64,000 nt of DNA from Schmidtea polychroa (Eukaryota). The translations under genes and the position numbers were made by a program. Below the pieces are notes generated by a model. It was not told where the DNA came from and ran no database searches. It worked only from the letters and a program-made list of their open reading frames with translations. Positions 19,767 through 21,403 of this stretch are shown here, piece after piece (the first letter of the stretch is position 1; each line of letters starts with the position of its first letter). Location of the stretch: NCBI GenBank assembly GCA_044892525.1, contig CM097885.1, positions 24,740,001 through 24,804,000 on the forward strand, given 5' to 3'.

Positions 19767-20542
19767 ATTTATTTTTGTTATATTTGTGTTTATTTCTTGC
19801 AATACATCTTGCATTTTACTTTTATGTTCTCAACTTTGGTGTTGCGTTGGATCATTTTATTGGATTTAATTGATATTATTTCATATTTTAATTTTAATTC
19901 TACTCACGGTTATGTTAGCATGCTATTTTTCGAAACATTTTTAACCAGAATTTCTATTTAATTGATGGTAAAATCAGTAAAATCGGAATTTTCAATAAAT
20001 TTGTATGAAATACTTTCCAATAAATTATCTTATTTATTAATACATCTAATAAGCCGCAATGAAATATTTTATTCAACCGAATTTATTTGACGTTTACTCG
20101 ATTCCTTTAAATTCATTTCTTTTGTCCTCGTTATCTTTTCATTATTATTTATTATGCGCATGATAAAAGAGATTATGTGTCCGCATTGTTTCAATAAATA
20201 ATGTATAAATTAAGGTTTAATAGTATTTCAAGCGCAAAGCATGTTGTAATATAATAAAATTGAAAATATATTTGATGTTTATCTTATAGGAAAATCTTAA
20301 AATAATAGTTGTAATAATAATTATAATAATAATAATGATAATAATAATAATAATGATAATAATAATAATGATAATAATAATAATGATAATAATAATAATA
20401 ATAATAATAATAATAATAATAATAATAATAATAATAATAATAATAATTGAACAAATTAAATTCAAATGAAGTCCGAATCAAAGTTTTATCTATCAACTAT
20501 CATTTGCTAGACTCCAAGTGTATAAGTCAACAAAGCATGCTC

Positions 20543-21225
20543 TCAAGTTTTATCATTTTTTGAAATACCAGCTTCAAGTTCTCCAATAATCATCAGACCC
20601 TTTTCTTTTCGATATAGGGGTTTGCATTCACCGGATGCTTAGCAAGCACTGTATTGTAACATTTGATTGCCGATGGTCCCCGGTTTAATTTCAAATTACA
20701 ATGCGCCATATTCAAATATAATTTCACAATATGACTCCATCGAATTTTCTCCTCGTCATCAGTCTCTAACGGCATAGCATGTAATATATCCAATCCTTGT
20801 AAATATTCATTGAGCGCAATTCCAAAACGTTTGTTTCGAACAGCAGCAATGGGATCATTTTGACATTGAACAACTAATTTAATAATTTCATTGAAAGAAA
20901 ATTGGAATTATTCATCAATAAAATTTTCAAACAATTCATCAATAATGTCTGTCAATTTACTAGTCAAAGCTTTGTACTTGACAAATGAAGTAGAATCAGA
21001 TTACTCAACATCATCAACGTCATTATCAAAAGGTAGTGACAAACTACATTCTTTTAGTAGTGATTGATATCCTTCTCCACTAAAAAAACTATCTGTTTCT
21101 TCAGAACCATTAGAACTATACAGCTTGCTCTCTCCTTGTTCCATTAACTCAGTGATGTACTTTCTTTTCAGCATTCGATCTCTTTCATTTTCATTACCAA
21201 ATTTCAAATAAACATCCGTTGACAT
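20543..21225 (-). pseudogene. Intronless FKBP6/Shutdown-like TPR gene apparently lacking the PPIase domain
   Basis: Read-through translation ...FVKYKALTSKLTDI-IDELFENFIDE*FQFSFNEIIKLV...RNKRFGIALNEYLQGLDIL...KLYLNMAHCNLKLNRGPSAIKCYNTVLAKHPVNA(fs)LYRKEKGLMIIGELE resembles the linker and TPR repeats of FKBP6; 2 stops and 1 frameshift. Confidence 0.65.
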
Positions 21226-21318
21226 TTTTTGATTCAAATATTCAAAATAATACATGACCAATAATAATTCCTAAAATTTCGATAAATTCCATTCTTTTCG
21301 AGAATAAAAGCCTTTTTC

Positions 21319-21403
21319 CGCGCCTGTGTGCGCACATATACACAACGGAACCATTTTAACAACAAAATGCACACAGACGCGAGCCCAAAAATCGCCCGAA
21401 ACA
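21319..21403. promoter_or_regulatory. LTR-like terminus with CGCG(T/C)CTGTGTGCG...GCACACAGACGCG hairpin motif
   Basis: Same motif pair and similar spacing from a terminal CA as the ends of 28147-30523; abuts (AAT)n. Confidence 0.7.

Follow-up and report, generated by a model that had tools for sequence, protein, structure and literature searches.

Within the 64,000-nucleotide stretch of Schmidtea polychroa DNA that we analyzed (hereafter, the window), a 956-bp segment resembling part of the FKBP6/Shutdown gene is a solo LTR: a single, decayed long terminal repeat from a BEL/Pao-type retrotransposon family. The family is unusual in that host gene pieces lie within its LTRs and share a frame with a ubiquitin-spaced Gag; the cassette described here is a dead one. 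The original prediction had recognized a transposon-borne copy of FKBP6/Shutdown, which is borne out, and had suggested that it could act as a dominant-negative anti-silencing factor, which is not. The segment and its parts are as follows, by position in the window.

20448..21403, minus strand: solo LTR of 956 bp (TG...CA) of a BEL/Pao-type sub-family, with a sharp stop of homology at both ends among copies and 5-bp duplications.
21404..21408, no strand: target-site duplication on the 5' side, within an AAT tract, identical to 20443-20447; weak alone in a microsatellite, but backed by other copies.
20443..20447, no strand: target-site duplication on the 3' side, identical to 21404..21408.
21319..21381, minus strand: family hairpin (arms of 13-14 bp, loop variable), set in from the 5' end of the LTR by about 20 bp; 2,360 genome matches.
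20936..21225, minus strand: the first 95 or so codons of FKBP6, including the host start codon and acidic N-terminal region, without intron 1; 90% identical to host CDS 1-290.
20936..20945, minus strand: junction left where an in-frame deletion of 348 nt took out the PPIase; its two sides match in register at 11 of 13 nt; common to 20 of 88 copies.
20579..20945, minus strand: FKBP6 linker, TPR1, TPR2 and first helix of TPR3, without introns 5, 6 and 7 and broken here; 90% identical to host CDS 629-996, with a weak Pfam TPR_1 match.
20495..20584, minus strand: EF-1alpha fragment of about 30 codons; 90 nt at 90% identity to the host EF-1alpha locus (L157).

We identify the unit as a solo LTR because of its TG...CA ends, its 5-bp duplications and the primer site present in a few copies. 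The searched genome comprises 781 Mb in four large contigs, and the window is AT-rich and repeat-dense. A DNA search with the LTR returned 295 candidates (the best other copy is 88% identical among the 40 scored), and a protein search with its read-through translation returned 206 candidates, with at least 150 matches. After 13 duplicate loci were removed, 90 FKBP6-LTR copies remained, and 88 after two members of a tandem array were removed as well. Both ends were located in 36 of the 90; 5-bp duplications flank 21 of these (14 exact and seven with one mismatch), and a primer site follows two. A tandem array at G000:C2:93.06-93.27 Mb (L240, L241) has a period of about 7.9 kb and an interrupted FKBP6 LTR in each unit. 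Another copy, 5'-truncated and 88% identical, lies 39 kb upstream of the window copy on the same strand (L002, G000:C1:24720855-24721613). We rejected it as the partner LTR because the window copy carries its own target duplication.

The hairpin, whose arms occupy 21319-21330 and 21370-21381, had been taken for the terminus of a mobile unit. A related hairpin is indeed shared by other units, but it is not a free end, as it lies inside the TG...CA boundary. Further pairs occur in the window at 28170/28233 and 30440/30500 (six arm matches, compared with 0.01 expected), and the genome-wide count refers to exact forward matches, for which a control gave none. Folding predicts the stem, with a z score of only -1.46 over 104 nt, and an Rfam search with the hairpin matched no family. 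Short inverted duplications reportedly occur in the LTRs of some planarian families according to Grohme et al. in 2018, whose supplements may describe the hairpin family. The (AAT)n tracts on both flanks (20301-20447 and 21403-21664) are present as predicted, but this setting is incidental: the window copy is the only one of the 36 copies delimited at both ends that has a microsatellite on each side. Just past the AAT tract, at 22149-24158, is a broken hAT-like transposase (DUF4371). Elsewhere in the window, a Polinton-like element (2634-11518), which encodes a type B DNA polymerase and is bounded by long terminal inverted repeats, is apparently inserted within a gypsy-like gag-pol (12206-15479, 2126-2473).

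Sequence comparisons support the host orthologue of FKBP6/Shutdown as the source of the cargo. A profile search built from the open stretches of copies led to P0001, a protein of 459 aa with FKBP_C and TPR domains (E 1e-98). The window read-through aligns with its residues 5-96 and 213-329 (the second block is 74% identical), and Pfam places the PPIase (FKBP domain) at 118-206, along with TPRs. Thus, as had been proposed, the PPIase is absent and its flanks are joined directly, by a deletion that is in frame. When nine top full-length relatives were looked up, six were named FKBP6 and three had no name. In a quick tree of the TPR region, the parent belongs to a 65-row group that contains all six named FKBP6 proteins (SH-aLRT 93) and is separate from FKBP4- and FKBP8-type rows, in keeping with the predicted identity. 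The intact parent gene, on a different contig (G000:C2:104.533-104.537 Mb), contains ten introns, and contigs of all three runs examined show it spliced. Its intron 1 is a 42-nt GC-AG intron (L141:3213-3254). Other searches gave no source. A word-based protein search with one short copy as query found no match, and a genome search with PF00254 gave 11 matches, none of them the cargo source, and missed the parent. With the window read-through, the only match in a PDB search was a weak one to CDC16, and a protein atlas yielded generic TPR clusters.

The copies cross the positions of introns 1, 5, 6 and 7 without a gap in 41, 67, 77 and 69 cases, respectively, and none of the 90 contains intron letters; therefore, an mRNA was captured. 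The description of the window copy as an intronless TPR pseudogene is accurate relative to this parent. Its read-through frame has its ATG at 21225, 94 bp from the hairpin (about 95 bp had been stated), and runs on the minus strand for 210 codons, including two stops, before a frameshift. The frame is broken by two stops (21003-21001 and 20910-20908) and by a frameshift near 20620, and the EF-1alpha piece contains more stops. The host start codon is kept in 37 of the 40 copies that cover it.

Capture stops at about codon 333 of 455, within the third TPR. The capture never included the capping helix or the second helix of TPR3, and none of the 88 copies has a three-repeat TPR array with a capping helix in an open frame. 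The predicted joining of Hsp90-binding TPRs to the N-terminal part therefore holds for the linker, TPR1 and TPR2, whereas the array ends within TPR3, where it is fused to EF-1alpha. The PPIase is retained in two of 90 copies, one of which also has the hairpin and the EF-1alpha joint (an aligner found three such copies and BLAST two; the third was taken as an artefact). Loss of the PPIase is therefore secondary, and the first capture comprised codons 1-333. All other copies lost the PPIase and kept the TPR region, on which the searches were seeded. Shared in-frame deletions measure 348 nt (20 copies), 399 nt (21) and 153 nt (6), and some further in-frame deletions also take out the acidic region. 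All three large shared deletions are in frame, compared with 29 of 78 single-copy deletions of at least 10 nt (p 0.04). This evidence is weak, and the in-register microhomology of the 348-nt deletion would keep the frame anyway.

The original prediction overlooked the 90-nt EF-1alpha piece. It joins FKBP6 at about codon 333 through microhomology of 10 of 12 nt, and a sister copy of the LTR matches eEF1A residues 117-154 (E 4e-13). Contigs from runs presumed to be RNA cover both parents, FKBP6 and EF-1alpha. One such run also has low-depth contigs with LTR-type joints, which are indistinguishable from DNA carry-over. A separate region, G000:C2:111.16-111.23 Mb (L160-L163), contains eight near-identical matches to the EF-Tu domain 3 family, with frames of 518-537 aa, and represents a local cluster of translation-GTPase-like genes.

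A primer site follows the FKBP6/EF-1alpha LTR in four copies. It is complementary to genomic tRNA-Met, whose genes occur in arrays; one 454-bp tandem array is at G000:C1:79.33-79.39 Mb and beyond (L303), and the 3'-end pattern has 1,228 matches genome-wide. Of the 44 copies measured, 28 have EF-1alpha and the primer-site codons in the same frame, 24 of them at the modal distance. In the FKBP6-LTR copies that were translated, a ubiquitin domain lies behind the primer site. Two glycines end the ubiquitin in one FKBP6-LTR copy and in most of 16 further relatives; they are absent in two decayed FKBP6-LTR copies, a loss that we take as decay. A DUF1759 Gag is present in the two relatives scanned, which have the closest better-kept internal regions. 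Downstream of three copies with a primer site, over 40 kb for two of them and 17 kb for the other, we found no pol linked to the FKBP6 LTR. Two related elements show other arrangements: in one, part of a DEAD-box helicase separates the primer site from ubiquitin (L293:960-2687), and the LTR of the other is a mosaic of myotubularin and Clp protease pieces (L297:2417-2908).

The window also contains a sister element, with these parts.

29747..30523, minus strand: sister LTR type with the same hairpin and a RING-finger cargo (which we take to be RNF126-like), then a tRNA-Met primer site.
28844..29746, minus strand: 5' internal region of the sister element with a ubiquitin domain (Pfam, 4e-22), inverted relative to the rest.
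28147..28843, plus strand: third LTR type with the same hairpin, with a purine tract before it.
25627..28146, plus strand: decayed BEL/Pao gag-protease of the sister element (DUF1759, DUF1758) with RT-to-integrase deleted; 92% identical to a young full element.

In this element (25627-30523), the 5' LTR and ubiquitin region (28844-30523) are inverted with respect to the gag-protease and the other LTR, and the two LTRs carry unlike cargo. A coiled-coil stretch, common to several other copies, takes the place of RT-to-integrase.

Elsewhere in the genome, the hairpin sister family has a DUF1759 Gag, RT, Peptidase_A17 and integrase between two LTRs, and in one sister element that was scanned, a single frame encodes ubiquitin, DUF1759, RT, Peptidase_A17 and integrase. 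We collected 20 full young elements, with LTR pairs 97.9-100% identical and a primer site in 19. In 16 of these 19, at least 160 codons upstream are open in the primer-site frame, compared with at most 39 in the other frames, and nine of the 19 are also open for at least 400 codons downstream.

Cargo content was sampled in 44 units, namely those with the first exact hairpins on contig 1. Open stretches of 120 or more codons follow the hairpin in sense in 37 and in antisense in four. Pfam identified a proteasome subunit in 18 units (fused to EAP30 in three and to a Ras-family piece in two), RING in three, WD40 in two, and a dual-specificity phosphatase in one, leaving 20 unnamed; Rab-type gene pieces also occur in the LTRs of young sister families. 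The suggestion that related hairpin units carry interchangeable host-derived cargo is therefore upheld. A piRNA-pathway domain was found in none of the 44 units (none of the 24 named cargoes), and silencing genes could be hidden among the 20 that are unnamed. FKBP6 cargo was absent from the 64 sampled hairpin loci and young elements. One hairpin LTR lies directly downstream of a 1,245-bp tandem array (G000:C1:160001-169550; L147).

Identity between FKBP6-LTR copies is only 86.5% (median), or 90.5% to the nearest neighbour, and the burst is therefore old; identity to the parent is about 90%. The genome DNA search was topped by no young copy, and the sub-family looks extinct. Every one of the 88 copies has a stop or frameshift, including the 20 that share the 348-nt junction, so the intact paralogues envisaged earlier were not found. 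Rare and single-copy variants comprise 439 synonymous changes, 1,438 non-synonymous changes and 142 stops (omega 1.01). Changes after insertion are neutral, and purifying selection on the copies is not seen. The original prediction had itself named a lack of intact paralogues and of purifying selection as counting against it, and this largely applies here.

The family differs from the host at 15 synonymous and 14 non-synonymous codons. When P0001 is used to polarize them, nine of the 14 amino-acid differences belong to the LTR line, three belong to the host line, and two are unplaced (9 vs 3, p 0.15); by hand calculation, omega on the LTR line is about 0.2 to 1. The LTR line is looser than the host line, and moderate constraint on it is possible; as a test of selection in the active lineage, the comparison is weak. 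Another test, based on shared variants (six synonymous, 11 non-synonymous, no stops), formally rejected omega <=0.2, but we discounted it because recurrent mutations are mixed in and only two sites track the deletion classes. All five residues at the putative Hsp90-clamp positions are the majority state in the family, and the window copy lacks two of them; these positions were mapped partly by the usual clamp pattern and partly by alignment to FKBP51. Loss of the first clamp arginine (31 of 76 copies) was rejected as a family change and attributed to decay, as it occurs in all deletion classes and at a CG codon.

The explanation that probably accounts for these observations is that spliced FKBP6 and EF-1alpha sequences were captured into an LTR by template switching, in frame with ubiquitin-Gag, and were kept as a disposable leader until the element died and left solo LTRs. 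The spliced sequence of the cargo and the microhomology at both inner joints would reflect reverse transcriptase jumping onto co-packaged host mRNAs while the LTR was being copied, after which the pieces would have been doubled into both LTRs. In the primer-site copies and young sister families, the LTR frame runs through the primer site into ubiquitin with two glycines, and on into Gag. Host enzymes cleave ubiquitin fusions after the two glycines. Such a cut would release Gag from the upstream sequence, and any in-frame host piece would be tolerated; lines would have survived where the LTR start codon remained in frame with Gag. It is likely that selection kept the start codon and open frame and that host deubiquitinases cut the cargo off, the predicted translation and cleavage being read from the frames. 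The PPIase was part of the first capture, and the 348-, 399- and 153-nt in-frame deletions arose and spread later. Recombination between LTRs would then have produced solo LTRs, followed by neutral decay.

We regard an anti-silencing role in any form as doubtful. A version that we consider unlikely is a cassette system, in which any host mRNA piece caught by an LTR served as both ubiquitin-released protein and piRNA source, and the FKBP6 cassette, while its burst lasted, blunted piRNA loading until it was silenced. Slightly more skepticism is due to counter-defence at the RNA level, in which the element would be a source of FKBP6-derived piRNAs that reduce the host's own FKBP6 transcript, a route proposed for TART-A and nxf2. 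Such a mechanism needs no intact frame, piRNAs target planarian LTR elements, and more than 100 copies about 90% identical to the parent are present. In the available text of earlier reports, Drosophila telomeric elements offer a precedent, with fragments of nxf2, piwi and aub at about 90% identity and piRNA genes in eight of nine captures. However, the host protein shows no faster evolution in its captured part, which matches P0001 at 314 of 334 positions (94%), compared with 108 of 121 (89%) for the uncaptured tail, a comparison at the protein level of one pair. The cargo survey, with neither a piRNA-pathway domain nor a second case of FKBP6, and the lack of young copies in the sub-family also argue against it.

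It is improbable that the FKBP6 leader without PPIase, once freed, competed for Hsp90 or PIWI as a dominant-negative protein and thereby weakened piRNA loading. Ubiquitin cleavage would free it as a separate protein, and the host start, acidic region and TPR1-2 are kept, nearly all copies have lost the PPIase, and the five putative clamp-equivalent positions are the majority state. Nevertheless, no copy is intact, the last TPR helices were never captured, further deletions remove the acidic region, and amino-acid change is greater on the LTR line than in the host. Moreover, post-insertion omega is about 1.0, the frame serves as a ubiquitin-Gag leader, and the sub-family is old, while its sisters with ordinary cargo are young. 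Evidence from flies, as far as the available text goes, points in both directions: TPR point mutants inactivate Shutdown, and one study reports no Shutdown-Hsp83 complex in ovary cells (PMC3463805; bioRxiv 10.1101/2024.11.13.623522).

Equally hard to credit is an untranslated passenger, that is, neutral LTR filler with Gag starting at a later methionine. Methionines do occur just after the primer site in several young elements, and single-copy changes are neutral. Against this, one frame is maintained across unrelated cargoes in young elements, sense orientation predominates in the 44 sampled units, and the host start codon is kept. Fresh captures would be sense-open anyway, yet they need not join the primer-site frame. 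Finally, a DNA transposon (Pack-type or Helitron-like) with hairpin termini targeting AAT microsatellites is refuted, despite the hairpin adjoining one end and the AAT tracts on both flanks here, by the TG...CA ends, 5-bp duplications, primer site, paired LTRs around gag-pol, lost introns and rarity of microsatellites on both sides.

Several known systems resemble the captured-leader LTR in part. In the available text of Tan et al. 2016 (PMC5131818), LTR-mediated retroposition in animals yields partial spliced host mRNAs, similar stretches at joints and multi-gene chimeras, with further rounds of copying; one case involves a Pao element, and maize Bs1 is cited. The FKBP6 LTR shares with these the spliced partial mRNAs, loss of introns, similarity at joints and chimerism of two genes. 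In the cases described there, however, the retrocopy replaces internal sequence between LTRs and template switching is modelled for such internal captures, whereas here the cargo is within the LTR and switching is proposed during LTR copying. Also unlike those cases, the cargo starts the Gag frame, persists in solo LTRs and differs among sub-families of one backbone.

The captures of nxf2, piwi and aub by Drosophila telomeric retrotransposons (PMC7785250, PMC13534243, as far as the available text describes them) are similar in involving part of a piRNA-pathway gene, about 90% identity and many copies. Those elements are non-LTR, and their captures measure 140-235 bp, are strongly enriched for piRNA genes, have demonstrated piRNAs, and correspond to a faster-evolving host region. 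The FKBP6 capture, which is known from sequence only, is 650-1,000 nt and in frame, is one cargo among many, and shows no acceleration. FKBP6/Shutdown itself is a co-chaperone, according to the accessible parts of PMC3463805 and bioRxiv 10.1101/2024.11.13.623522. The parent gene resembles it in having an acidic N-terminus, one FKBP domain and TPRs, and it groups with named FKBP6 proteins, while the piece in the LTR has neither the PPIase nor the last part of the TPR array, continues into EF-1alpha sequence, and is disrupted in all copies that were examined. Planarians also have giant gypsy elements, Burro/GYPSM1, with host-like domains, including a ubiquitin-like one, in one polyprotein (PMC6431247, in its available text). 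The present family is likewise a planarian LTR element with host-like domains of ubiquitin type. Burro, as described there, is gypsy-type, about 30 kb long and has its extra domains after Gag, whereas the present family is BEL/Pao-type, about 7.5 kb, with LTR cargo before Gag.

The capture of host genes by LTR elements is thus already known; what differs here is that the host sequence lies within the LTR and shares its frame with a ubiquitin-spaced Gag. In the literature searched, whose scope lay outside Repbase and the 2018 planarian genome paper, we found no description of such LTR-internal capture, nor, in the literature searched, of a ubiquitin-Gag retrotransposon. The FKBP6 LTR represents capture of a piRNA-pathway gene outside Drosophila. 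More than 100 decayed copies resemble the real FKBP6 gene at about 90% identity, and they can interfere with its annotation, with mapping and with the design of RNAi. Each solo LTR is in effect a dispersed, pre-assembled chimeric gene, and the genome contains thousands of hairpin units.
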